Shown: piece after piece, positions 17,063-51,308 of the stretch
Layout: each line of letters begins with the position of its first letter
Position numbering within the stretch: the first letter of the stretch is position 1
Source of the DNA: an uncultured Candidatus Saccharibacteria bacterium
Lineage (GTDB): Bacteria > Patescibacteriota > Minisyncoccia > Phycocordibacterales > DATGWK01
Direction: 5' to 3'
Length of the DNA: 64,000 nucleotides
Assembly (NCBI GenBank): GCA_964492195.1
Contig: CAZBJL010000001.1
Span: forward strand, 79,082 to 143,081
Position numbers and translations under genes: made by a program
The notes under the pieces: model-generated
The model's input: the letters and a program-made list of their open reading frames with translations, nothing else
Told to the model about the DNA's origin: nothing
The model's database searches: none

Positions 17063-17155
17063 CACCCACCCCTCCAGGAGAGCGCATAAATTCTACTGAA
17101 TTTTGCTCCTCTCGGTCGCCTTCGCGACCTGCGAACTCTCCTGTTAGGGTGGGTT
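17063..17155. repeat. structured palindromic repeat, family B copy 1 (candidate ncRNA)
   Basis: Core cgcATAAATTCTACTGAATTTTGctc + GC hairpin ggtcgc-cttc-gcgacc, enclosed by stem caggagag/ctctcctg and outer cacccaccc/gggtgggt. Sits in the gyrA 3' UTR before the terminator. Confidence 0.6.
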
Positions 17156-17183: not shown

Positions 17184-17241
17184 TAAAAAACCGGACGTTG
17201 GTACAGAGTGAATCTCACTGTACCGGCGCCGGTTGTTTTTT
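17184..17241. terminator. bidirectional rho-independent terminator between convergent genes
   Basis: A-run, long hairpin ccggacgttggtacagagtga...tcactgtaccggcgccgg, T-run. Confidence 0.55.
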
Positions 17242-17683
17242 ACGTTGTCACAGACGGAGCTTCAAAAGTGGTGCCGCATTCGGGGCACACATGGTCCTCA
17301 AGTCCCGCCAGGCTATAGTCGCATTTCATGCAGAAGCGGCCCTGTCTCTTGTAATACTCCCATTTTGCATCCCTCCATCGTCCTCGTGAGTGCAATAGTG
17401 CGAGACCAATGATCGTGATTACTCCAAAAACTGTCATACCTACTGGCCAGGAACGTAATGCGGGAACTGGAGATACGAAGAGGGCCACTATGAGTGAGAA
17501 TATGGTGAGTATTCCCAACCAAAAAGTGATTTGGATATGCAAACGGATCACTTGTAAATCATTTTTGTACACTTTGAACACCGCACTATATAGAAATATC
17601 ATGAATAGTAACCACGAAAGAAAGAAGTAGGGAGGTAAAATGAGAGTGTAAGTCACCAGACGGGTGGTAAGACTTGGAAACAT
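17240..17683 (-). CDS. hypothetical membrane protein with C-terminal CxxC...CxxC zinc ribbon
   Basis: 147 aa, 3-4 TM helices, C-terminal CMKCDY...CPEC. Confidence 0.5.
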   Translation of the reverse strand: MFPSLTTRLVTYTLILPPYFFLSWLLFMIFLYSAVFKVYKNDLQVIRLHIQITFWLGILTIFSLIVALFVSPVPALRSWPVGMTVFGVITIIGLALLHSRGRWRDAKWEYYKRQGRFCMKCDYSLAGLEDHVCPECGTTFEAPSVTT

Positions 17684-18348: not shown

Positions 18349-19650
18349 ATGAAGGGGATGAGTAAATTTCAATTGATCCTCACCGGAATTTTCGGTGCAT
18401 TTATTCTTATTGGCGTATTGGTCTTTGCGTTTGCGGGAGGTTCTGGTTCGAACACAGTGGTAAGTCAGGCAACAGTCTGGGGTACGATGAGCAGCGGCCT
18501 TTTCGATACATTTTTGAAAGAGTCTGGACTCAACCAAGACAAAACCATTGCGATTACCTATGTCGAAAAAAACAAAGATACATTTGACCAAGATTTTGTC
18601 GAAGCACTCGCTGTTGGCAAAGGTCCCGATCTTTTCTTCCTGCCACAAGACAGCATTTTAAAACATCAAGACAAAATTTTTACAATTCCCTTTGCCTCAT
18701 ATTCAGAAGGAACGTTTAAACAAAACTTCATTCAGGAAGGAGAGTTGTATCTCAACAAAGAAGGTATTCTCGGTTTGCCGTTTATGGTTGACCCGATGGT
18801 TATGTATTGGAATCGAGACATCTTTTCGAATGCCGGTTTGAGTCTCACACCGAAATATTGGAGCGAGCTCTATGACCTTTCAACGAGACTTACAGTCAAA
18901 GATACAAGTTTCAATGTAAGCAAAAGTGCAGTGGCGATCGGTGAGCATGCAAACGTTACGAACGCCAATGAAATCGTAAGTCTTTTGGTGATGCAAGCAG
19001 GGAGTCCGATTACACAGCGGAATAAAATTGATGGAAATGTAAATAGTGTTTTCAATCAGCGTTTCAATTTGCCAATTCCGCCAGCACAGTCGGCACTTAA
19101 TTTTTATACTGAATTTTCAAATCCGCTCAAACCATTTTATTCTTGGAATCGATCGATTCCAGAATCAAAAAATTTCTTTCTTGCAGGTGACCTTGCGCTT
19201 TACTTTGGTTTTGCATCAGAACTTTCAGATATTCGCCTCAAGAATCCTAATTTAAATTTTGACATCGCATCGATTCCGCAATCAAAAAATTCAAATCTTA
19301 CAATTACGTTCGGCCGAATGGTCGGTCTTGCTATTCCAAAAAATTCTAAAAACATTGCCGCGGCGTTTAAAGTTGCTGCCTCACTTACGAGCCCAACGAG
19401 CATCACTGCACTTTCAAAAGTAACCCATTTGCCGCCAGTTCGAAGAGATTTACTCGCGATTCGTCCGTCAGAAGCCTATCTTTCAACATTTTACGATGGG
19501 GCGATTCAGTCGCGCGCCTGGCTTTCTCCTGAACCATCAAGTCTCAACCCAATTTTTAAAGAAATGATTGAATCTGTAACGGCAGGCCGAGCAAGCACAG
19601 CCGAAGCGCTTACTCGTGCAAGCCAGCAACTTGAAACATTACTCCGATGA
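18349..19650 (+). CDS. membrane-anchored extracellular solute-binding protein (family 1 SBP)
   Basis: N-terminal TM anchor. Sugar-SBP-like blocks: ALAVGKGPDLFFL, WNRDIFSNAGL, YWSELYD. Confidence 0.7.
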   Translation: MKGMSKFQLILTGIFGAFILIGVLVFAFAGGSGSNTVVSQATVWGTMSSGLFDTFLKESGLNQDKTIAITYVEKNKDTFDQDFVEALAVGKGPDLFFLPQDSILKHQDKIFTIPFASYSEGTFKQNFIQEGELYLNKEGILGLPFMVDPMVMYWNRDIFSNAGLSLTPKYWSELYDLSTRLTVKDTSFNVSKSAVAIGEHANVTNANEIVSLLVMQAGSPITQRNKIDGNVNSVFNQRFNLPIPPAQSALNFYTEFSNPLKPFYSWNRSIPESKNFFLAGDLALYFGFASELSDIRLKNPNLNFDIASIPQSKNSNLTITFGRMVGLAIPKNSKNIAAAFKVAASLTSPTSITALSKVTHLPPVRRDLLAIRPSEAYLSTFYDGAIQSRAWLSPEPSSLNPIFKEMIESVTAGRASTAEALTRASQQLETLLR

Positions 19651-20108
19651 AACGTATAATCCTCACTTTATTTTTACTGTTTGTGTTGATCGCAGTGCCG
19701 GTCGTTGCGTCTGCGCAGGCATTTGTAATTCCATGTACTGGCGCTCCGGCTGCAGATTTTCAGGGTACGCCTGGCCCAACGGATCACAACTGTACGTGGG
19801 TTGATTTTCTCCAACTTATTTCAAATGCACTTACGTTTTTAGTGCTCCTTTCGATTCCACTCGCAACGATCGCTTTTGCCTGGTCGGGCTTTCTTATGCT
19901 TACAGCGGCAGGAAGTGAATCCAAAGTTTCTGACGCGAAAGAAATTTTTACAAAGGTACTCATGGGTTTTATTTTTGTACTCACCGCATGGCTTATTGTG
20001 AAGTTGATCGTGTCGACACTGCTCAATGATTCATACGACGACATATTGCAAAGCGGATTGCCTTCGACACATCAGGAATATGTTATTCGAGGCGAAGAAT
20101 TAGTGTAG
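19647..20108 (+). CDS. VirB2/TrbC-like pilin-like protein, paralog 1
   Basis: Signal peptide (ends VVASAQA), two hydrophobic helices separated by a short charged loop. ATGA start/stop overlap with the SBP gene. Confidence 0.55.
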   Translation: MKRIILTLFLLFVLIAVPVVASAQAFVIPCTGAPAADFQGTPGPTDHNCTWVDFLQLISNALTFLVLLSIPLATIAFAWSGFLMLTAAGSESKVSDAKEIFTKVLMGFIFVLTAWLIVKLIVSTLLNDSYDDILQSGLPSTHQEYVIRGEELV

Positions 20109-20131
20109 TTTAAATTTGATACAATAAAACA

Positions 20132-20536
20132 ATGAAGTTTTTAAAATTTTTTGCGGGTTTGCTAGCCTCATTCGCGTTGCCTCTTGCTGCTTTTGCTGAT
20201 GGTCCCGCTGGTGGGGCAGGTGGTCTGCCAAATCCTCTTGCCGGCGGCGTTGATAGCATCCAGGCACTTCTTGTCCTTGTTCTCAACAACATTGTTCTTC
20301 CAATTGGATCTATCGTTGTGGTCATTATGATAATTTATTCCGGCTTTCTTTTTGTGACTGCGCGCGGAAGCGAGGATAAAATCGATACTGCAAAACATGT
20401 ATTGAAGTACGTGGTCATTGGCACCGCGATTCTTTTTGGTTCAGTCATCATTTCTTCGGTTATTGGCAATACACTCTGCCAAATCGCCCCAAGTCTCCCG
20501 GGTTGTGTTGCGTCAGGAAATCCTCTTGGAAATTAA
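20132..20536 (+). CDS. VirB2/TrbC-like pilin-like protein, paralog 2
   Basis: Signal peptide (LAAFA), two TM helices with loop TARGSEDKIDTAKH. Confidence 0.55.
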   Translation: MKFLKFFAGLLASFALPLAAFADGPAGGAGGLPNPLAGGVDSIQALLVLVLNNIVLPIGSIVVVIMIIYSGFLFVTARGSEDKIDTAKHVLKYVVIGTAILFGSVIISSVIGNTLCQIAPSLPGCVASGNPLGN

Positions 20537-20539
20537 TTC

Positions 20540-20920
20540 ATGAAAAAGCTCTATCCTCTCATCCTCCTTGCTCTTGGTTCGTTTTCTCTGCCGATGCCTT
20601 TGTTTGCAGCTGTGTGCACGTCATTTACGGGTACACCGAGCACGTTTGGAGACGTTATCTGTTTGTTTACTGATCTCTTGCTCACGATAATCCCGATCGT
20701 TGCTGGTTTGGCGCTCGTCTTTTTCTTCTGGGGCTTGGCTAAGTCCATTTTGCACGCTGACAACGAAGATGCTCGCGAAGAAGGGCGGGAAGTAATGAAA
20801 TGGGGAATTGTGGCGCTTTTTGTACTCGTTTCGATTTGGGGAATCGTCCTCTACCTCCATGGTGATTTCTTTGGATACAGTCCTGTCGGTATTCCACAGC
20901 TGCCGACAGGTTCGATATAA
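20540..20920 (+). CDS. VirB2/TrbC-like pilin-like protein, paralog 3
   Basis: Signal peptide (PLFAA). Conserved FFWGLAKSIL-HADNEDAREEGREVMKWGIVALFVLVSIWGIV core. Confidence 0.6.
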   Translation: MKKLYPLILLALGSFSLPMPLFAAVCTSFTGTPSTFGDVICLFTDLLLTIIPIVAGLALVFFFWGLAKSILHADNEDAREEGREVMKWGIVALFVLVSIWGIVLYLHGDFFGYSPVGIPQLPTGSI

Positions 20921-20924
20921 ACAT

Positions 20925-21290
20925 ATGAAACTACAAAAAATTATTTTGAAAATTAAAACTGTAATTCTACTTTCCGTTTTTTCTATTCCCGCATTCGCAT
21001 TTGCTCAACAAGCTGACGGAATAAAGGGACTCATCGTATCTTTTGGGAATATTGTTCGGCTTCTTATCCCTTTGAGTGCTGCATGTGCGCTCCTGTTCTT
21101 TTTCTGGGGTTTGGCAAAATCGATTTTGAAATCTGACAGTGAAGATGGAAGGGAAGAAGGAAAAGAAATAATGAAATGGGGCATTGTTGCGCTTTTCGTA
21201 ATTACTTCTATCTGGGGCATCGTTGGATTTATTCAGGATGACCTTGGTATTCCAGATGTACACACCATTTCAGCGCCGGGTGTGAGGTAG
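20925..21290 (+). CDS. VirB2/TrbC-like pilin-like protein, paralog 4
   Basis: Signal peptide (AFAFAQQ). FFWGLAKSILKSDSEDGREEGKEIMKWGIVALFVITSIWGIV core. Start moved to the ATG at 20925 to avoid overlap with paralog 3. Confidence 0.6.
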   Translation: MKLQKIILKIKTVILLSVFSIPAFAFAQQADGIKGLIVSFGNIVRLLIPLSAACALLFFFWGLAKSILKSDSEDGREEGKEIMKWGIVALFVITSIWGIVGFIQDDLGIPDVHTISAPGVR

Positions 21291-21383
21291 TGTGGTACTA
21301 TGAATTCGACGGAGCTTTAAAATTGTGCTCAATTTATTATTAGTTTCTTTAAAAATATGCCCAGCATGGTTGGGCTCAATCAA

Positions 21384-21728
21384 ATGAAAAAAATTATTAT
21401 CGGAACCTTGCTTTTTGCTCCAATGTTCGCGTTTGCCCAGCAATTAGGCAATATCACCACGCTCATTCGATCAATCGGCAATATCATCCAGATTCTCATT
21501 CCGATCACTGCTGCGCTCGCCCTCCTCTACTTCTTCTGGGGCCTTGCAAAGTTTATTTTGAACTCTGCTGACGAAGAAAAACGTTCAGAAGGCAAGCATA
21601 TTATGATCTGGGGCGTTGTTGCGCTTTTCGTGATCGTGTCTGTTTGGGGTCTCACTGGTTTCATTGGCGATGCACTCGACATCAATACTCCACAGAGCCA
21701 ACCAATTCCTACCGTTAACGGTATCTAA
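21384..21728 (+). CDS. VirB2/TrbC-like pilin-like protein, paralog 5
   Basis: Signal peptide (MFAFAQQ). FFWGLAKFILNSADEEKRSEGKHIMIWGVVALFVIVSVWGL core. Confidence 0.6.
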   Translation: MKKIIIGTLLFAPMFAFAQQLGNITTLIRSIGNIIQILIPITAALALLYFFWGLAKFILNSADEEKRSEGKHIMIWGVVALFVIVSVWGLTGFIGDALDINTPQSQPIPTVNGI

Positions 21729-21751
21729 TCGCTCTCGTTTCTTTTTCTTCA

Positions 21752-22027
21752 ATGCCACTTAGCATACAATCATTTTTGAGTAGGATAAGTGAATTTATCC
21801 TCAACCCAATTATTGTGCTCATGTTTGTGGTGGCACTTCTTACATTTTTCTGGGGACTTGTTGAATTCATTCGCAGCGCGGGCAGTGAAGACGGCCGCGA
21901 AACCGGAAAGCGAAACATGATGTGGGGAATTATCGGTATGGTTATTATGGTCGGTGTGTACGGCATCATTCGGATCACCCTTTCTACCTTCGGAATCGAC
22001 ACCCCAGTATATTTGAGAGGTCTCTAG
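21752..22027 (+). CDS. VirB2/TrbC-like pilin-like protein, paralog 6 (no signal peptide)
   Basis: FFWGLVEFIRSAGSEDGRETGKRNMMWGIIGMVIMVGVYGII core only. Confidence 0.5.
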   Translation: MPLSIQSFLSRISEFILNPIIVLMFVVALLTFFWGLVEFIRSAGSEDGRETGKRNMMWGIIGMVIMVGVYGIIRITLSTFGIDTPVYLRGL

Positions 22028-24531: not shown

Positions 24532-24627
24532 CGCGAGAGTATTTTTGGAATGAGCACATAAAAGTCTGCTGACTTTTTGCTCTGCTCGCGCCAAGCGCTG
24601 CGCAACTCATTTTGAAAATACTCTCGC
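24532..24627. repeat. structured palindromic repeat, family B copy 3 (diverged)
   Basis: Core caCATAAAAGTCTGCTGACTTTTTGCTC + gcgcc-aag-cgc hairpin + tgcgcaactc. Enclosed by IR gagagtatttttggaatgag / ctcattttgaaaatactctc. Lies between tRNA-Leu and tRNA-Lys. Confidence 0.5.
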
Positions 24628-24990: not shown

Positions 24991-25341
24991 TTACGCTTGA
25001 GAATTCTCACGTGCCTGATCGTCTTGTGAAGAGATATCGTCGACTCTTTGACGATTTTTTTCACCGACGTCGATAATGAATTCAAACACGGGGAGAGAAC
25101 GCATGTTTACGAATTTTTTAACGTATTCGCGGAGGTCAGAACTCTTTCGTTTTGCGAAAGCGAGCGCGGCTTTTTCTTGAGTTTCGGGCAACACAGAAAT
25201 GAAAACCGTGGCGCCTTTCGTTTTTTCGTTATATGCAATGCGAGTAACGGTGATGAGCGACATCGGCCCCGCTTCGTGACTTAAAAATTCACCAACAAGT
25301 TTGGTGAGAAGCGATTCAACTTTTTCTTGATGATGATCCAT
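24991..25341 (-). CDS. rbfA: ribosome-binding factor A
   Basis: 116 aa. RbfA-like pattern (LITVTRIAYNEKTKGATVFISVL). Confidence 0.75.
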   Translation of the reverse strand: MDHHQEKVESLLTKLVGEFLSHEAGPMSLITVTRIAYNEKTKGATVFISVLPETQEKAALAFAKRKSSDLREYVKKFVNMRSLPVFEFIIDVGEKNRQRVDDISSQDDQARENSQA

Positions 25342-26858
25342 TATTTTTCGATTGTTTGATATGAGCGGAGAATGTCGCCAACTGCAATTTCAAATTTGGA
25401 ATCGACAAGAGCTCCGAATTCATTGCCAGCTTCGACTTTCGATGTGTCTTTTTTCTGCTGCTGCATGCCGCGAATTCTGCCTGTACCGATTTCGGTTTCT
25501 CGGCGGATTATTTTGATTGCTTCGCCTACAGCAAGGAAACCTTCGTCAACCTTACCACCGATTATCTGCTTGTCTTTCTGGCGGCTGAACGTGCGGAGAA
25601 TTCTCGCACTTCCTGTAGTTTCGTCAACCATCATCTTTGGCGTGTGTTCGACGAGGAGCTTCTCTACTTTTTCTGTGAGTTTATAGATAATTGAAAAAAT
25701 TTCTATTGAAATTCCATCTCGTTCGGCGAGGATTTTTGCTGCAGAGTCAGCTTTTGTGTTGAATCCGAAAATAAATGCTTTGGTGCTTGCATTTGCGCTT
25801 TTTACATCTCCTTCGCCAATCGCACCAACACCTTCAGAAATTATTTCTGGGCGAATCCTGTCATTTCCCAATTTTTTAACTTCATAGTTAATAGCTTCAA
25901 GGCTACCTGCGGTGTCTGCTTTAACAATAATTGTGAGTGTAGAAATTTTATTTTCTTGACCAAGGTTCGAAGTTCTTTGAACTTTTGTTGCATTGAGGTC
26001 GAATGTTTTTGTATATGAAAGTGCTTCTTCTTTTGAATCAAACGTTTTAAATTCCACACCTGCAGGAACAAGTTCGCTCCAGCCAATGATTGTGATCGGA
26101 GTTGAAAAACTCGCTTCCTGCAACTTTTCTCCCATATCATTTTCAACAATTCGAACTGTTGCGAAGCTGTTGCCAGCGGCCACGAATTGTCCTGTTCGAA
26201 GCGTCCCGTCTTTAATAATAAGCGTAGCGGAAACACCCTTTCGAGAATCAAGTTTGCTTTCAATAACCACGCCGCTTGCGTTCATTGCTTTGATACCTTT
26301 GAGTTCTTGAACGTCTGTGGTGAGGAAGACGACGTTGATTAATTCGTCGACGCCTTCGCCAGTTTTTGCAGACACAGGAATGCAGGTGACAGTGCCGCCG
26401 TAGCCTTCGACATACACTTCGTTTTCGGCAAGGCTTTGTTTTGTGCGGTCAATGTTCGCGCCTGGCTTGTCAATTTTGTTTATTGCAACGACAAAGGGAA
26501 TGTTTTGTTCTGTGATTGCGTTCAGTGCTTCGAGCGTTTGTTTTTTGACACCGTCTTCAGCAGAAACGACAAGGATAGCAACGTCCGCGACTTTTGCTCC
26601 GCGAGATCGGAGTGTTTGAAACGCTTCGTGACCCGGCGTATCCAAAAAAGTTACCCGTCGTTTTTTACCGTCGATTTCGTAGAGAGTTTCGTACGCAGAA
26701 ACATGTTGGGTAATACCTCCAGCTTCGCCATCAACAACTTTTGTTTTTCGAATGTAGTCGAGAAGGGTAGATTTACCGTGGTCGATATGCCCCATAACCA
26801 CCACCACTGGCGGTCGTTCTGTGACTGTAGCGTCTGTTTTTGGAGCGGTTTTGTTCAT
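25341..26858 (-). CDS. infB: translation initiation factor IF-2 (short form)
   Basis: GHIDHGKST G1 motif, DTPGHEAF G3, NKID G4. Overlaps rbfA by 1 nt. Confidence 0.92.
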   Translation of the reverse strand: MNKTAPKTDATVTERPPVVVVMGHIDHGKSTLLDYIRKTKVVDGEAGGITQHVSAYETLYEIDGKKRRVTFLDTPGHEAFQTLRSRGAKVADVAILVVSAEDGVKKQTLEALNAITEQNIPFVVAINKIDKPGANIDRTKQSLAENEVYVEGYGGTVTCIPVSAKTGEGVDELINVVFLTTDVQELKGIKAMNASGVVIESKLDSRKGVSATLIIKDGTLRTGQFVAAGNSFATVRIVENDMGEKLQEASFSTPITIIGWSELVPAGVEFKTFDSKEEALSYTKTFDLNATKVQRTSNLGQENKISTLTIIVKADTAGSLEAINYEVKKLGNDRIRPEIISEGVGAIGEGDVKSANASTKAFIFGFNTKADSAAKILAERDGISIEIFSIIYKLTEKVEKLLVEHTPKMMVDETTGSARILRTFSRQKDKQIIGGKVDEGFLAVGEAIKIIRRETEIGTGRIRGMQQQKKDTSKVEAGNEFGALVDSKFEIAVGDILRSYQTIEK

Positions 26859-26887: not shown

Positions 26888-27385
26888 TTAGCCACGGTGA
26901 GAAAGTTTTTTGTGGACGTTTTCGATAACCGCTTGTTCTTCTTCGCTAAGCTCAAATTCAGATTTGTAGTTTTTTACCGATTTACTAAAAATACTTACTC
27001 GTTCACGGCTATACAAACCAGAAACAACAACACCGTTTCCTGATTCGTCTATAAACGCGGTAGAAAAGCTTTGATTGCCACCGTCGCCCGTGCCTTTGAA
27101 TGGATTGAATCGAATTGTTTCGACACCTTGAACGCTTCTTTTGAGGCGCATCTCGACAGTTTCGAGGTATTTGTTAATGGTGTTCTTGAACGTGTTGAAT
27201 TTGTCGAGTTCCGTTTTGTGCAATACAAGCGCTTCCTGAATATTTTTGGCTTGAGTGCCGCCGAGGAGCTGACGGATCTTTCGGCCCAATAAAATAAGCC
27301 AGACGGTGTTGGCGACAGCAAGAACACATGCTCCGACAAGAGCCCAAAAAATGGTTTCTGTTGTAAGGGTGAAAGGCATGTTCAA
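26888..27385 (-). CDS. hypothetical N-terminally anchored protein (DUF4446-like)
   Basis: 165 aa, N-terminal TM helix then a soluble domain. Confidence 0.4.
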   Translation of the reverse strand: MNMPFTLTTETIFWALVGACVLAVANTVWLILLGRKIRQLLGGTQAKNIQEALVLHKTELDKFNTFKNTINKYLETVEMRLKRSVQGVETIRFNPFKGTGDGGNQSFSTAFIDESGNGVVVSGLYSRERVSIFSKSVKNYKSEFELSEEEQAVIENVHKKLSHRG

Positions 27386-27434
27386 GTTCCGATTATACTT
27401 TTAAAATGGTATTTTGCCAAAGCGTGGAGGAGGG

Positions 27435-27544
27435 AAGCACTTATGCATATCTCAAAATGACCGCCATAAATTCTACTGAATTTTGGCTCACTCTCGGCGC
27501 CTACGCGCCTGCGAGAGTCATTTTTCAACATGCATAAGTGCTTC
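27435..27544. repeat. structured palindromic repeat, family B copy 2 (candidate ncRNA)
   Basis: Outer perfect 15 bp IR gaagcacttatgcat/atgcataagtgcttc, inner stem aaaatgac/gtcatttt. Core ccgcCATAAATTCTACTGAATTTTGgctc + ctctcg-(ggcgcc-tac-gcgcc)-tg-cgagag. Confidence 0.6.
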
Positions 27545-27567
27545 AGTTTGTTGCGGTAGAGGATACG

Positions 27568-28422
27568 ATGCAATATGATTACTCTATGGAAGACTTAAGT
27601 ACGACCCAAACAATTCTCCTCTGTGTTCTTGTGAGCTTTGTTACCTCAATTGGAACTGGAATTATTACCACTTCTTTTCTCCAGGAGGCTCCACAAACAG
27701 TAACCCAGACTATTAATCGCGTCGTTGAAAGGACAGTAGAAACAATCGTGCCACAGCAAACCGGCGGCCCAACTCGCCAAACGACGGTTGTTGTAAAAGA
27801 AGAAGACCTCGTTATTGATGCAATACAGAAAAGTCATGGCAATCTCGTGTGGATTACAAATAGCGAAAACCGCAACCAGTCGCCAGTTCGAAGTATTGGC
27901 GTTGTTGTTAAAAAAGACGGAACGATTCTTGCAGATAAAAGATTTGTGTTAGCAAGTGGAAGTTATAATGCCGTTTCGTTCGGAGATCAAACTCCATATT
28001 CGCTGTCTGTCCTTGCGGTAGGGAGAAATACAAATGCAATTTTTCTCAAACCCACAACAGTAAGTACCACTACAAAAGCCTTTGCTCCACTCGTATTGAG
28101 TAAACCTAACAGCATTCAGCTCGGCCAAACTGTCATCGCGATCGGAGGTAAGGAAAAAGAATCTGTAGCGATTGGAAGAATTATTTCTGTGAACACTTTG
28201 CCGCAAAATTCAGGTCAGGCAACAAGTACAAAAGTGATCGATACGATAGAAACAGACGCCGCGCTCCGTGACGGCATTCCGGGCTCTATACTCCTCAATC
28301 TTAACGGTGAAATTGCAGGATTCGAAAATTTTGACGCAGCTCGAGGCCTCGAATCCATCTATACATCTATCAATATTATTAAGAACGAAAACCCTTCATT
28401 CTTCGAACCTTCTACAATCTAA
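27568..28422 (+). CDS. membrane-anchored trypsin-like (HtrA/S1C-like) domain protein, catalytic triad substituted (pseudoprotease)
   Basis: TDAALRDGIPGSILLNLNGEIAGFEN aligns to HtrA TDAAINPGNSGGPL-VN-NGE-IGIN with Ser replaced by Pro. The His region reads ILADKRFV and the Asp region NAIFLKP. Confidence 0.5.
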   Translation: MQYDYSMEDLSTTQTILLCVLVSFVTSIGTGIITTSFLQEAPQTVTQTINRVVERTVETIVPQQTGGPTRQTTVVVKEEDLVIDAIQKSHGNLVWITNSENRNQSPVRSIGVVVKKDGTILADKRFVLASGSYNAVSFGDQTPYSLSVLAVGRNTNAIFLKPTTVSTTTKAFAPLVLSKPNSIQLGQTVIAIGGKEKESVAIGRIISVNTLPQNSGQATSTKVIDTIETDAALRDGIPGSILLNLNGEIAGFENFDAARGLESIYTSINIIKNENPSFFEPSTI

Positions 28423-31586: not shown

Positions 31587-32717
31587 ATGCAAGACTCCGA
31601 AACAAAAGGCCTTCGAACATGGATTGAAATTGATCGTGCGGCAATTGCGCATAATTACTCTTTACTCAGAAGCCTTCTTTCGCCTAAAACAAAATTCATG
31701 GCCGTGGTGAAGTCCAATGCCTACGGACACAACTTTATCGACTTTTCTAAAGAAATCGCCAAGCTTGGTGCGGATTGGCTTGGGGTCGATTCTATTGTTG
31801 AAGGTTTGGCATTACGTAAAGAGGGAATTAAAAATCCGATTCTGGTTTTGGGTTACACCTTGCCTGAACGTCTCGCAGAGGCAGCAGAAGCACATATTTC
31901 TCTTACCGTTTCGACATTTGAAACACTCGAAGCAATTTCAAAGCTAGACACTGCACTTTCTATTCATATCAAAGTCGATACTGGCATGCATCGGCAAGGC
32001 TTCCAAGCAGAACAGATGCAAGAAGTGATTTCGACTCTCACATCTTTGCCGAAACATATTTCTGTTGAAGGTTTGTTTACTCATTTTGCTGCAGCAAAAA
32101 ATCCTGGGACGACAGAAAAAACTCTCGCCCAGATCGCAGAGTTTGAAATGTGGCAAAAAGCTTTTGGTGATGCAGGATTTTCTCCGCTCATTCATGCGTC
32201 TGCAAGCGCAGGTGCGATGGTCTACCCGCAGGCTCACTTCGATATGGTGCGTTTTGGGATTGCGATGTATGGAGTCTGGCCATCTTCTGAAGTGAAGGGA
32301 TCCGAAAAGGGTATGGATTTGAAACCGATTCTTTCCTGGAAAACGATTATTGGTGAAATAAAAAATGTAAAAAAGGGAGAAGGGGTTGGGTATGATTTTA
32401 CAAACATATTGAAACGAGATTCAAAACTCGCCATTTGTCCGATTGGGTATTGGCATGGTTTGCCTCGTTCTGTTTCAAACAATGGAAGCGTGCTTGTCTG
32501 TGGAGCGCGCGCACCGATCACTGGCCGAGTTTCTATGGATATGATTACGATTGATGTAACTGATATTCCTGACGCAAAGGTGGGAAGTGTCGTCACTATC
32601 ATTGGCCGAGATGGCGGAGAAGAAATCCGCGCCGACAAAATCGCAGATCCAGAAAGGACTTCAGAATACGAGATCATTACAAGAATCAATCCGTTGATTA
32701 AGAGGATTTTTGTGTAG
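31587..32717 (+). CDS. alr: alanine racemase
   Basis: PLP-lysine motif AVVKSNAYGHN. C-terminal GRVSMDMITIDV pattern. Confidence 0.85.
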   Translation: MQDSETKGLRTWIEIDRAAIAHNYSLLRSLLSPKTKFMAVVKSNAYGHNFIDFSKEIAKLGADWLGVDSIVEGLALRKEGIKNPILVLGYTLPERLAEAAEAHISLTVSTFETLEAISKLDTALSIHIKVDTGMHRQGFQAEQMQEVISTLTSLPKHISVEGLFTHFAAAKNPGTTEKTLAQIAEFEMWQKAFGDAGFSPLIHASASAGAMVYPQAHFDMVRFGIAMYGVWPSSEVKGSEKGMDLKPILSWKTIIGEIKNVKKGEGVGYDFTNILKRDSKLAICPIGYWHGLPRSVSNNGSVLVCGARAPITGRVSMDMITIDVTDIPDAKVGSVVTIIGRDGGEEIRADKIADPERTSEYEIITRINPLIKRIFV

Positions 32718-32742
32718 TAATGAATTGTATTTCTATTCCAAT

Positions 32743-32885
32743 CCAGCTCTAAAGGAGGGTTTCGCAGCCCCTCACAAGGAGGGACAAGTCAGACCGGACT
32801 TTCGTCTGGTATTTCTCGAAAGTCCGGTCGTGGGCGAGAAGAGCGAAATTTCAGCAGAAATTTACGCGCCCTCCTGAAGAGCTGG
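32743..32885. repeat. structured palindromic repeat, family A copy 1 (candidate novel ncRNA)
   Basis: Terminal IR atccagctct/agagctggat. Nested helices aggaggg/ccctcct, 13 bp gaccggactttcg/cgaaagtccggtc, gcgaaattt-CAGCAG-aaattt(a)cgc. Conserved gtgggcgaga. Second copy at 50389-50512 with compensatory changes in every helix. Confidence 0.65.
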
Positions 32886-32937
32886 ATTACGCCATATCTT
32901 GCCTTTTTTGCACGTTTACTGTATATTTTCTCTCACT

Positions 32938-33096
32938 ATGTCACAAGACCATTTGATCAAACTTACCTGCACGAAATGCAAAGAAGTTAATTACTATACG
33001 ACTAAAAATCGTAAATCTGTTGAACGTAAAATAGAATTGAAGAAATTCTGCAAAACCTGCAAAAAGAGAACTCCTCACAAGGAATCTAAAAAGTAA
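32938..33096 (+). CDS. rpmG: 50S ribosomal protein L33
   Basis: MSQDHLIKLTCTKCKEVNYYTTKNRKSVERKIELKKFCKTCKKRTPHKESKK. Start taken at MSQDH. Confidence 0.8.
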   Translation: MSQDHLIKLTCTKCKEVNYYTTKNRKSVERKIELKKFCKTCKKRTPHKESKK

Positions 33097-50103: not shown

Positions 50104-50358
50104 ATGGCAAAAACCAATTCCGCGTTCATGAAACCTATGACTATCAGTGCTGATCTCGCCGAAGTCGTCGGTAAGGGTCCTATGCCTCGGTCAGAAGTTG
50201 TGAAGAAGCTCTGGGTCTACATCAAGAAAAATAATCTTCAGGATCCTAAGAACAAGCGCAACATTGAAGCTGATGCACCTCTCAAGAAAGTCTTTGGAGG
50301 TAAGGGTACCGTCAACATGTTTGAAATGACAAAACTCGTTTCAAAGCATCTTTCATAG
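50104..50358 (+). CDS. SWIB/MDM2 domain protein
   Basis: 84 aa. ISADLAEVVGKGPMPRSEVVKKLWVYIKKNNLQDP matches the SWIB fold consensus. Confidence 0.65.
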   Translation: MAKTNSAFMKPMTISADLAEVVGKGPMPRSEVVKKLWVYIKKNNLQDPKNKRNIEADAPLKKVFGGKGTVNMFEMTKLVSKHLS

Positions 50359-50388
50359 TTCTGCATTGTTTGTATTAGTTTTTCTAAA

Positions 50389-50512
50389 CCCAGCCCACAA
50401 GGAGAGTTTCCGCAGCCAGGTCGCATTTTCGTCATGAATTTTCGAAAATGCGACCGTGGGCGAGAGTAGCCGAAATCCAGCAGGATTTACGGCGCTCTCC
50501 TGAAGGGCTGGG
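50389..50512. repeat. structured palindromic repeat, family A copy 2 (candidate novel ncRNA)
   Basis: acccagccc/gggctgggt ends. aggagag/ctctcct. 13 bp ggtcgcattttcg/cgaaaatgcgacc. gccgaaatcc-CAGCAG-ggattt(a)cggc. Ends 11 nt before the ABC ATPase start codon. Confidence 0.65.
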
Positions 50513-50522
50513 TTAAACCTCC

Positions 50523-51308
50523 ATGATAGACATCAAAAACGTCACAAAAAAGTACGATACATTTACTGCCGTTGATAATATTTCTCTCCATGTAAGTAAG
50601 GGTGAGGTTTTTGCCTTTCTCGGCCCAAATGGTGCAGGAAAATCCACTACGATCAAAATGCTTACGACTCTTTTGCATCCAACATCGGGCGAAATTTTTC
50701 TCGATGGCCATAACGTAAAAGAGAATCCACACCAAACTCGTCGTTCTTTCGGTATTGTGTTTCAAGACCCAAGTCTCGACAATGAACTCACTGCGTACGA
50801 AAACATGCAGCTCCACGCGATTCTCTACGGCGTTCCAAAGAATGTATACATAGAACGAATTGCGAAACTTTTGAAGCTTGTTGAACTTGAGGATCGAAAA
50901 GATTCATTTGTAAAAACCTTTTCTGGCGGCATGAAGCGCCGACTCGAAATTGCTCGCGGACTTCTTCATACGCCAACCGTCCTTTTCCTCGACGAACCAA
51001 CGATTGGTCTTGATCCGCAGACTCGAAATCATATCTGGAATTACATTAAGAAGTTGAATGAAGAGGAAAACGTAACGATTTTCTTTACAACGCATCATAT
51101 GGAAGAAGTAGAACGATACGGTACCAAGATCGCTATTATCGATCACGGCAAAATTATTGCCCAAGGAACTATCGATGAAATTAAGTCCCAAGCGTCAGCA
51201 GAAAATCTCGAAGATGCCTTCATTGCTCTTACGGGAAAACAAATTCGTGCCGAGGTTGGCGATGTGTCGAAAAATCTTATGAGAACGAGTCAGAGACTGA
51301 TGCGATAA
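50523..51308 (+). CDS. ABC transporter ATP-binding protein
   Basis: Walker A GPNGAGKST, signature FSGGMKRRLEIA, Walker B LFLDEPT. Confidence 0.88.
   Translation: MIDIKNVTKKYDTFTAVDNISLHVSKGEVFAFLGPNGAGKSTTIKMLTTLLHPTSGEIFLDGHNVKENPHQTRRSFGIVFQDPSLDNELTAYENMQLHAILYGVPKNVYIERIAKLLKLVELEDRKDSFVKTFSGGMKRRLEIARGLLHTPTVLFLDEPTIGLDPQTRNHIWNYIKKLNEEENVTIFFTTHHMEEVERYGTKIAIIDHGKIIAQGTIDEIKSQASAENLEDAFIALTGKQIRAEVGDVSKNLMRTSQRLMR

Follow-up and report, generated by a model that had tools for sequence, protein, structure and literature searches.

What is the same branched, palindromic sequence doing at five places, on both strands, in a genome of a kind that is not expected to carry repeats? The question is raised by a 64-kb stretch of DNA from a member of the Patescibacteria, or Candidate Phyla Radiation (CPR), called here the window. 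In this group genomes are streamlined, about 1 Mb or smaller in size, and are generally held to be poor in repeats. The window holds five members of one family of structured elements (three on the + strand, two on the - strand), or one copy per 13 kb, and the family recurs in metagenome-assembled genomes (MAGs) across the Patescibacteria. The answer developed below is that these elements probably, if far from securely, form a class-wide Parcubacteria/Paceibacteria family of small (about 90-190 nt), non-coding, non-autonomous palindromic mobile repeats, comparable with the REP, ERIC and RPE elements, that spreads via a folded single strand. The evidence is of two kinds. The fold is maintained through compensatory change; and copies are gained and lost between related genomes, land beside or within other copies, occasionally in frame inside genes, and lie in either orientation relative to genes.

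Five copies and one branched fold

A first-pass annotation of the window had reported a family of three copies, all on the + strand, with a shared core and a copy-specific helix. The three are present where it placed them, and every sequence that it quoted exists; the family, however, runs to five copies on both strands in the window, and to hundreds across the Patescibacteria. A loose hairpin pattern, with seven matches in the window against 0.54 expected, was the route to the two additional copies. An unfiltered covariance-model run over the whole window (model R1) recovers exactly these five, with E = 9e-16 to 9e-4. The 24-mer core is expected zero times in shuffled sequence, and the folding of all five copies stands far above that of shuffles (z = -4.2 to -8.3). 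The copies, called c1 to c5, and the parts of the first of them (an enclosing stem, P1, and two hairpins, P2 and P3) are as follows:

17064..17154, + strand: copy c1; 41.0 bits with model R1, E = 1e-8, fold z = -5.7, ends by stem extension; starts 10 nt past the gyrA stop (17054), upstream of a terminator-like hairpin at about 17186-17240; variant subfamily, with the inner stem GAGAGCGC...CTCTCC
17075..17143, + strand: inner stem P1 of c1; CAGGAGAG (17075-17082) paired with CTCTCCTG (17136-17143)
17088..17103, + strand: hairpin P2 of c1; AAATTC-TACT-GAATTT, with the loop C-TRCT-G that does not vary across the family
17114..17129, + strand: hairpin P3 of c1; GGTCGC-CTTC-GCGACC
24533..24627, + strand: copy c2, canonical type; 67.6 bits with R1, E = 9e-16; in the spacer between tRNA-Leu(tag) and tRNA-Lys(ctt), antisense to both tRNA genes
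27434..27544, + strand: copy c3; 56.7 bits with R1, E = 7e-13; between divergent genes for a DUF4446 protein (26888-27385, - strand) and a trypsin-like protease (27538-28422, + strand)
32740..32888, - strand: copy c4; 36.0 bits with R1, E = 2e-7, ends by stem extension; between alanine racemase (alr, 31587-32717, + strand) and rpmG (32899-33096, + strand)
50387..50514, - strand: copy c5; 22.2 bits with R1, E = 9e-4, fold z = -6.8, ends by stem extension; between a SWIB-domain gene (50104-50358, + strand) and an ABC ATPase gene (50523-51308, + strand)

Common to c1-c3 are RTAAA, an A/T hairpin of 6-7 bp (loop C-TRCT-G), GCTC...CTCG, a short GC hairpin and CTGCG, the whole enclosed by a helix particular to each copy. 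The locations given earlier for these three (past the gyrA stop, in the tRNA-Leu/tRNA-Lys spacer and in a divergent intergenic region) are correct. Their descriptions were right as sequence and exchanged as labels: the P2 hairpin AAAGTC-TGCT-GACTTT and the outer helix gagagtattttt..., attributed to the third copy, belong to c2 (the copy at 24532), and the perfect 15-bp outer helix gaagcacttatgcat, attributed to the second, belongs to c3 (at 27435), where an internal loop and an 8-bp inner stem follow it. The 20-bp helix of c2 contains three G.T wobbles; c3 was found again, as the same copy, in Logan contig L001. The other two copies have P3 enlarged to a 13-bp hairpin, c4 with one extra hairpin besides, and outer helices AATCCAGCTCT/AGAGCTGGATT (c4) and AACCCAGCCC/GGGCTGGGTT (c5). 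Together with c1 they make up the variant subfamily, which has further members at L066, L112 and L115 (L numbers denote loci that were studied beside the window, among them 8-kb pieces around copies). The outer helices had all been thought unrelated; this fails for c1, whose helix is a diverged version of those of c4 and c5, with compensated changes among the three (aAyCCAsCyC.../...GrGsTGGrTt).

The interval from c1 to the convergent open reading frame (ORF) at 17240-17683 contains a GC-rich hairpin, set between an A-run and a T-run (aaaaaaccggacgttggtacag...ctgtaccggcgccggttgtttttt, 17186-17240), that looks like an ordinary bidirectional intrinsic terminator. Because this hairpin is there, c1 itself is probably not the gyrA terminator.

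The fold of the family was drawn from a structure alignment of 102 members. The 5' half of the consensus runs from a variable stem into CAC-R-CA-T-AAAANNC-TGCT-GNNTTTT-TG-CT-M-NN-C-T-CGG and the GC hairpin; beyond the hairpin it continues CC-T-GCG-NN-A-K-G and passes into the variable stem again. RNAalifold and an explicit covariation test on the 102 sequences support a three-way junction of P1, P2 and P3. P1, which encloses the rest, is long and variable (median arm 26 nt by stem extension), and the elements have a median length of 110 nt (range about 90-190 nt). P2 is an A/T stem of 9 bp with a bulged T and the loop C-UGCU-G; it exists in at least 20 different variants, each perfectly complementary, and its pair A22-T42 has become G-C in six of the 102 sequences. 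P3 is GC-rich and expandable, with an arm length that varies across the family. It reaches past the GC hairpin, at which it had first been taken to end, and includes M46-K77 (C-G 60, A-T 30), N48-N75 (T-A 79, C-G 17), N49-N74 (G-C 85, T-A 11) and a bulged A. It also takes large inserts: an AT-rich one of at least 80 nt at L045 (about 860-960), as well as the 13-bp hairpins of c4 and c5. Roughly one copy in five has an outer helix as well, set off by an internal loop that is conserved (5' ..CTC, 3' TCG..). One candidate helix was rejected: CRCA of the 5' junction against TGCG on the 3' side shows no covariation on the model strand and has an A.C mismatch in 47 of the 102; these mismatches would be G.U on the reverse strand, and the helix is kept solely as a hint on which strand folds.

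That pairing is kept while sequence changes, first proposed from three copies, is strongly supported by the 102 sequences. Standard pairs occupy 92% of pair cells, against 72% after shuffling and 33-49% when partners are slid by 1-3 columns; cells with double changes number 537, against 153 in shuffled alignments; the covariation score is 0.496, against 0.143 shuffled and 0.11 or less with slid partners. Double changes occur at 18 of 27 pairs, and copies with broken helices do not dominate. Unpaired positions are conserved too: the loop C-TGCT-G, the junction CAC-R, GCT, CTCG and the bulged A are near-invariant across about 80 assemblies.

Compensatory change can nevertheless arise in more than one way. 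Template switching during replication can yield compensatory changes in inverted repeats without selection (PMC8794818); between the arms of such repeats it also homogenises or extends the arms and inverts spacers (PMC8794818, PMC13100816, PMC8604942). Part of the covariation here could therefore be mutational, and template switching may be the cause of the near absence of wobble intermediates and of the locus-specific outer extensions of P1 (as between L018 and L037, in the same MAG); possibly it also accounts for a pair of loci, L007 and L100, in which elements occupy the same intergenic region in opposite orientations. Pressed to its end, this line of argument makes the family an inert, decaying repeat, its stem-preserving changes a by-product of template switching with no selection on structure. 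The documented ability of template switching to create and maintain perfect hairpins (PMC8794818, PMC13100816, PMC8604942) speaks for such an account, as do the rarity of G.U intermediates, the outer extensions and the L007/L100 case. It is very improbable all the same: the near-invariant unpaired nucleotides are something that template switching cannot explain, the strand asymmetry of wobble pairs described below is left without explanation as well, and present data point towards purifying selection on unpaired core positions.

Spread, gain and loss of copies

One genome per species was scanned with the pattern TAAAN{2,3}CTRCTGN{6,7}GCTMNKCTCGS. At least 116 stretches matched, and about 110 of the matches are genuine, which takes the family to over 100 copies outside the window, in some 80 MAGs of Patescibacteria. 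Among the 122 pattern matches listed, the P2 stem is perfectly complementary in 106 and has a single mismatch in four more, and all of these come from Patescibacteria MAGs. The 12 matches outside the Patescibacteria (Clostridia, an archaeon, others) were set aside as chance, hairpin complementarity being absent from them; those in Clostridia (L023, L036, L082 and L095) all come from one conserved, homologous stretch and are not copies of the element, L023 and L036 being 91% identical over 6.8 kb. With the covariance model, 126 hits were obtained in 856 kb of Patescibacteria loci. No match to the pattern was found in the viral contigs of IMG/VR, and a phage origin was rejected on that ground.

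The host records name Paceibacterota, Nomura-, Taylor-, Vogel-, Portnoy- and Zambryskibacteria, Parcubacteria RAAC4_OD1_1 and Minisyncoccia. Many host MAGs bear the label 'uncultured Candidatus Saccharibacteria', which is treated here as unverified. A protein search with the IF-2 gene that lies between c2 and c3 returned named relatives in the 'Patescibacteria group', Minisyncoccia, Paceibacter and Zambryskibacteria, and no relative between 86% and 100% identity to the window genome. A Chlamydia-like origin, suggested at first by the SWIB domain, was rejected in view of these IF-2 relatives; exact searches for the GyrA and SWIB-domain proteins returned no recorded match. This IF-2 (25341-26858) has just 505 aa and is without the long N-terminal region; Patescibacteria relatives are similar in length.

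Gain and loss can be read from related genomes. For 21.5 kb (L002-L005), synteny with the window is kept in a relative whose IF-2 is 86% identical. The element is missing there from each of the orthologous c1-c4 sites, the spacers are shorter by roughly one element length, and a model search of the whole 21.5 kb found no copy anywhere. A divergent intergenic region is orthologous in four MAGs: one element, E2, is present in all four, a second, E1, just in L031 and L011.

Elements also land on one another. In MAG CAZFHL, a canonical copy is nested in the P2 region of a diverged family member; the nesting came to light in a loose and otherwise too noisy search for the long form's outer helix. 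The diverged, 'V-type' member is intact at L116:575-710 (53.6 bits), and the interrupted loci L116:5366-5580 and L117:2795-3030, which lie on two contigs with different truncations, jointly reconstruct a V-type member. Seven close pairs of copies, 27-104 nt apart, are known, far above expectation from a background of about one extra copy per 40 kb: five are convergent (L011, L031, L059, L078 and L121; 43-104 nt apart) and two tandem (L068 and L076). One convergent pair occurs three times in MAG CAYODR, with near-identical stems (L059:4294-4499, L078:7558-7763 and L121:850-1094), which suggests that pairs can be duplicated as a unit, in the manner of BIMEs.

Nearly all copies are intergenic. 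Cores often lie 7-40 nt from a stop codon, with stem arms overlapping the 3' ends of genes, and one variant-subfamily copy (L112:1888-1956) precedes a 23S rRNA gene (L112:1-1236) on the same strand, about 650 nt ahead of its 5' end. Among about 130 copies, the case of an element inside an ORF is confined to one gene in two MAGs: a phosphoglucomutase/phosphomannomutase ORF of 481 aa reads through an in-frame element (L048:2251-3696 and L105:162-1607). In an alignment with PDB entry 1wqa, mutase residues 10-132 and 186-471 are covered; the element accounts for some 30 additional residues, which fall between domains I and II.

The opposite orientations mentioned above are those of L007:4519-4639 and L100:5575-5702. 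The two elements, from two MAGs, belong to the same subfamily and sit directly past a shared terminator hairpin, in flanks that are 83-91% identical; they represent either a flipped core or two independent insertions. A composite transposon was considered and rejected: whatever the relative orientation of neighbouring copies, the genes examined between them are housekeeping genes, ordinary ones such as prfA, RNase R, S16, L10/L12, ComEC and similar.

Two further features of the window are recorded here in passing. Positions 19647-22027 correspond by synteny to L003:14866-17198, a row of five or six small genes whose products, in that relative, match T4SS_pilin/TrbC; and the gene at 50104-50358 encodes an 84-aa SWIB/MDM2-domain protein, in a Patescibacteria genome.

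The folded strand and the fate of the copies

Does the element act as RNA, as duplex DNA or as a single strand of DNA? Orientation is the first guide. Relative to flanking ORFs, 88 classifiable copies divide into 28 with the same orientation as both neighbours, 22 opposite to both, 22 between convergent and 16 between divergent genes; these figures rest on crude ORF calls and exclude 30 copies that overlap a called ORF. Wobble pairs are the second. Where P2 and P3 covary, hardly any G.U or A.C occurs: the two P2 pairs that vary most have a single T.G among 204 cells. In P1, the model strand has 104 A.C against 46 G.U; after collapse into 69 clusters the counts are 55 against 23, and by element 30 against 7 (p = 2e-4). 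Read on the reverse complement, wobble pairs exceed A.C mismatches in P1; the signature thus falls on the strand opposite to the one that the first-pass annotation had described as structured. The reverse complement is also the more stable fold in 108 of 126 elements and 98 of 102 cores, and its internal loop is purine-rich (AGCGAA/GAGTAA). Copies are randomly oriented relative to genes, so the asymmetry is a property of the element. It is most simply read as a need for a given strand to fold, as single-stranded DNA (ssDNA) or RNA, if the element is to persist or spread.

The earlier proposal had gone further, taking conserved pairing as the mark of selection on the structure of RNA (or of hairpin DNA) and not on a protein-binding site. 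The covariation stands; covariation alone does not separate a functional RNA from a mobile hairpin, and the passage to RNA meets unbiased orientation, rare G.U and the behaviour of an inserting element. One version of the RNA view supposes a structured module used by the host (a processing, stability or termination signal, or a small RNA), for which insertion was just the route of arrival. Much is consistent with it: covariation is strong; loops and junction are near-invariant across a class-level clade; orthologous cores remain intact, in the mutase insertion too, while their P1 arms are scrambled yet paired; and the reverse-complement strand, with its better fold, its wobble signature and a purine-rich internal loop such as many RNA motifs have, is the transcribed one in the window's three unambiguous co-directional contexts (c2, c4 and c5). 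Against this, co-directional copies in the two orientations number 28 and 22, and with no orientation bias transcription would yield the wrong strand for about one copy in two. The virtual absence of G.U from covarying P2/P3 positions is unusual for an RNA family, presence varies strongly between close relatives, the element tolerates translation inside an enzyme, and no relative is found in Rfam. A host RNA module is an unlikely account of the family, if one to be taken seriously as the chief rival of the mobile-repeat reading.

Alternatively, the element could be a site in DNA: a hairpin or cruciform bound by a host protein (of the nucleoid, or gyrase, or of recombination or replication) and kept for genome architecture, as has been proposed for REP/BIME. 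Strictly Watson-Crick helices, orientation independent of genes, intergenic positions flanking housekeeping genes and BIME-like clustering in pairs would all suit such a site. The wobble asymmetry, on the other hand, points to one single strand, where a duplex or cruciform would be symmetric; relatives differ sharply in how many copies they have; and the in-ORF and nested copies are better fitted by opportunistic insertion. A cis-acting DNA site is distinctly improbable.

The mobile-repeat reading preferred here would combine these observations as follows. A long, fast-evolving P1 carries a conserved T- or Y-shaped three-way junction at its tip. Spread would proceed through a folded, single-stranded intermediate (ssDNA or RNA) of the reverse-complement strand, and an enzyme acting in trans would recognise the conserved junction and loops. 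Stems might be kept perfect in part by the needs of recognition, in part by hairpin-templated repair or template switching. If the host uses copies at all, for instance to signal processing, termination or stability in its transcripts, that use would be secondary.

Several observations weigh against this reading. Some concern the marks of transposition. At the stem ends of 118 copies there is no consistent target duplication or flanking motif, and the CTC...TCG flank that recurs in about 18% of copies is the internal loop of longer forms. No clean empty site was found, and relatives such as L003 (86%) have diverged too far for exact ends to be read from them. Among the genes examined next to and between copies, in a partly annotated window and in 8-kb pieces, none for a transposase, a reverse transcriptase or a nuclease of the HUH family was seen. 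The architecture, a conserved centre with copy-specific arms, is the opposite of a classical miniature inverted-repeat transposable element (MITE), and few MITE families would be expected to keep a core of about 55 nt through an entire class, an unusual depth of conservation.

The remaining objections concern retention: position has been kept across diverged genomes, and stems have been compensated in place. The orthologue of c2 in MAG JBAQFC (L026) occupies the corresponding tRNA-Cys/Leu/Lys/[element]/Leu spacer, its relative orientation unchanged, and has the outer CGAGAGTA arm in common with c2; the nearer relative L003 has no copy there. In the four E2 orthologues the core is kept, and stems that have diverged almost beyond recognition are still paired. 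The orthologous mutase copies of L048 and L105 show compensatory differences in P1 and P3. A dead selfish copy should decay; kept cores therefore hint at selection in situ or at concerted evolution. They could reflect selection at the level of the host, selection for continued mobility, or concerted evolution among cores.

A fuller version of the mobile-repeat reading can be framed with these objections in mind, and is put forward tentatively, as somewhat unlikely in its entirety. It takes the family as a mobile element of a new kind, confined to the ultra-small Parcubacteria, whose T-shaped junction would be read as a single strand (ssDNA or RNA) by an enzyme. Later on, the copies would have been recruited as signals in RNA or DNA. 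Co-option would explain cores that remain intact at orthologous sites, even inside a protein-coding gene.

Known families and comparable repeats

The fold does not correspond to a catalogued family. At gathering thresholds, Rfam 15 finds 13 tRNAs and nothing else in the window, and just tRNA and LSU rRNA in 18 loci with canonical copies; a permissive search (E up to 10), made around c1, around c5 and at L087, has no credible hit. Inspection of both strands by eye reveals no hammerhead, twister or other ribozyme core. Full-text literature searches returned no description of such an element in Patescibacteria/CPR, and a 2024 review of prokaryotic MITEs makes no mention of Patescibacteria.

A structured repeat in about 80 assemblies would be a new component of Patescibacteria/CPR genome biology; it is also a clean, covariation-rich structure that is missing from Rfam. 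As a marker, it is of use in typing strains and in spotting assembly problems in CPR MAGs. The element may also point to a mobilisation enzyme that acts on branched single-stranded nucleic acid. If it is indeed a new mobile element of Parcubacteria, no dispersed repeat family would have been described from the CPR before it, and it would be a handle on the mechanism of its mobilisation.

In shape, a parallel is the inverted terminal repeat of parvoviruses such as adeno-associated virus (AAV): a long stem, with a tip of two small hairpins, forming a T- or Y-shaped three-way junction that is read as ssDNA. The analogy is one of fold alone, with no evidence of relationship: the viral repeats are the termini of a linear replicon, bound and nicked by Rep, whereas the present elements are internal chromosomal repeats.

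MITEs (Correia, QMITE and Nezha among them) are likewise small, AT-rich, non-coding, multicopy and mostly intergenic, and their transcripts would form long hairpins (PMC10969869). MITEs have family-wide terminal inverted repeats, target-site duplications and a parent insertion sequence (IS). Here the arms are complementary within a copy and different between copies, what the copies share is the central 55-69 nt, and no consistent duplication is seen at the stem ends.

ERIC (IRU) elements share several features with the present family: both are imperfect palindromes of about 127 nt without a known transposase, found in transcribed intergenic regions in either orientation; copy number is hugely variable between related species, the host clade is wide, and internal insertions at defined points produce longer forms (in part PMC10969869). 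ERIC is conserved over its full length, arms included, whereas here conservation is limited to the centre, each copy having arms of its own. The hosts belong to another clade, and the comparison is by description, not by sequence.

The Rickettsia palindromic elements (RPE) occur in an unrelated lineage and are again compared by description, not by sequence; in-ORF copies are rare in the present family, most copies being intergenic, and the three-way-junction tip with variable arms sets it apart. The likeness is that of dispersed, palindromic, non-coding repeats of about 100-150 nt, without a known transposase, in the reduced genome of a host-dependent bacterium. RPE copies also lie in frame within conserved protein genes that are left intact (PMC10969869), as does the element in the mutase of L048 and L105.

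A last comparison is with REP/BIME elements and their RAYT (Y1 HUH) enzymes, and with the PATEs derived from IS200/IS605. A REP is a simple hairpin of 20-40 nt with a 5' GTAG, unlike the branched element of 90-190 nt described here, at which no conserved flanking tetranucleotide is seen. In other respects the two run parallel: both are hairpins outside genes that lack terminal inverted repeats, REP being free of target duplications and the present family showing no consistent one; the alternating-orientation clusters of REP/BIME have their counterpart in the convergent and tandem pairs; new elements tend to land in or near existing palindromes; and REP elements are thought to act as the folded single strand of one strand, which is the form proposed here for the Parcubacteria family.

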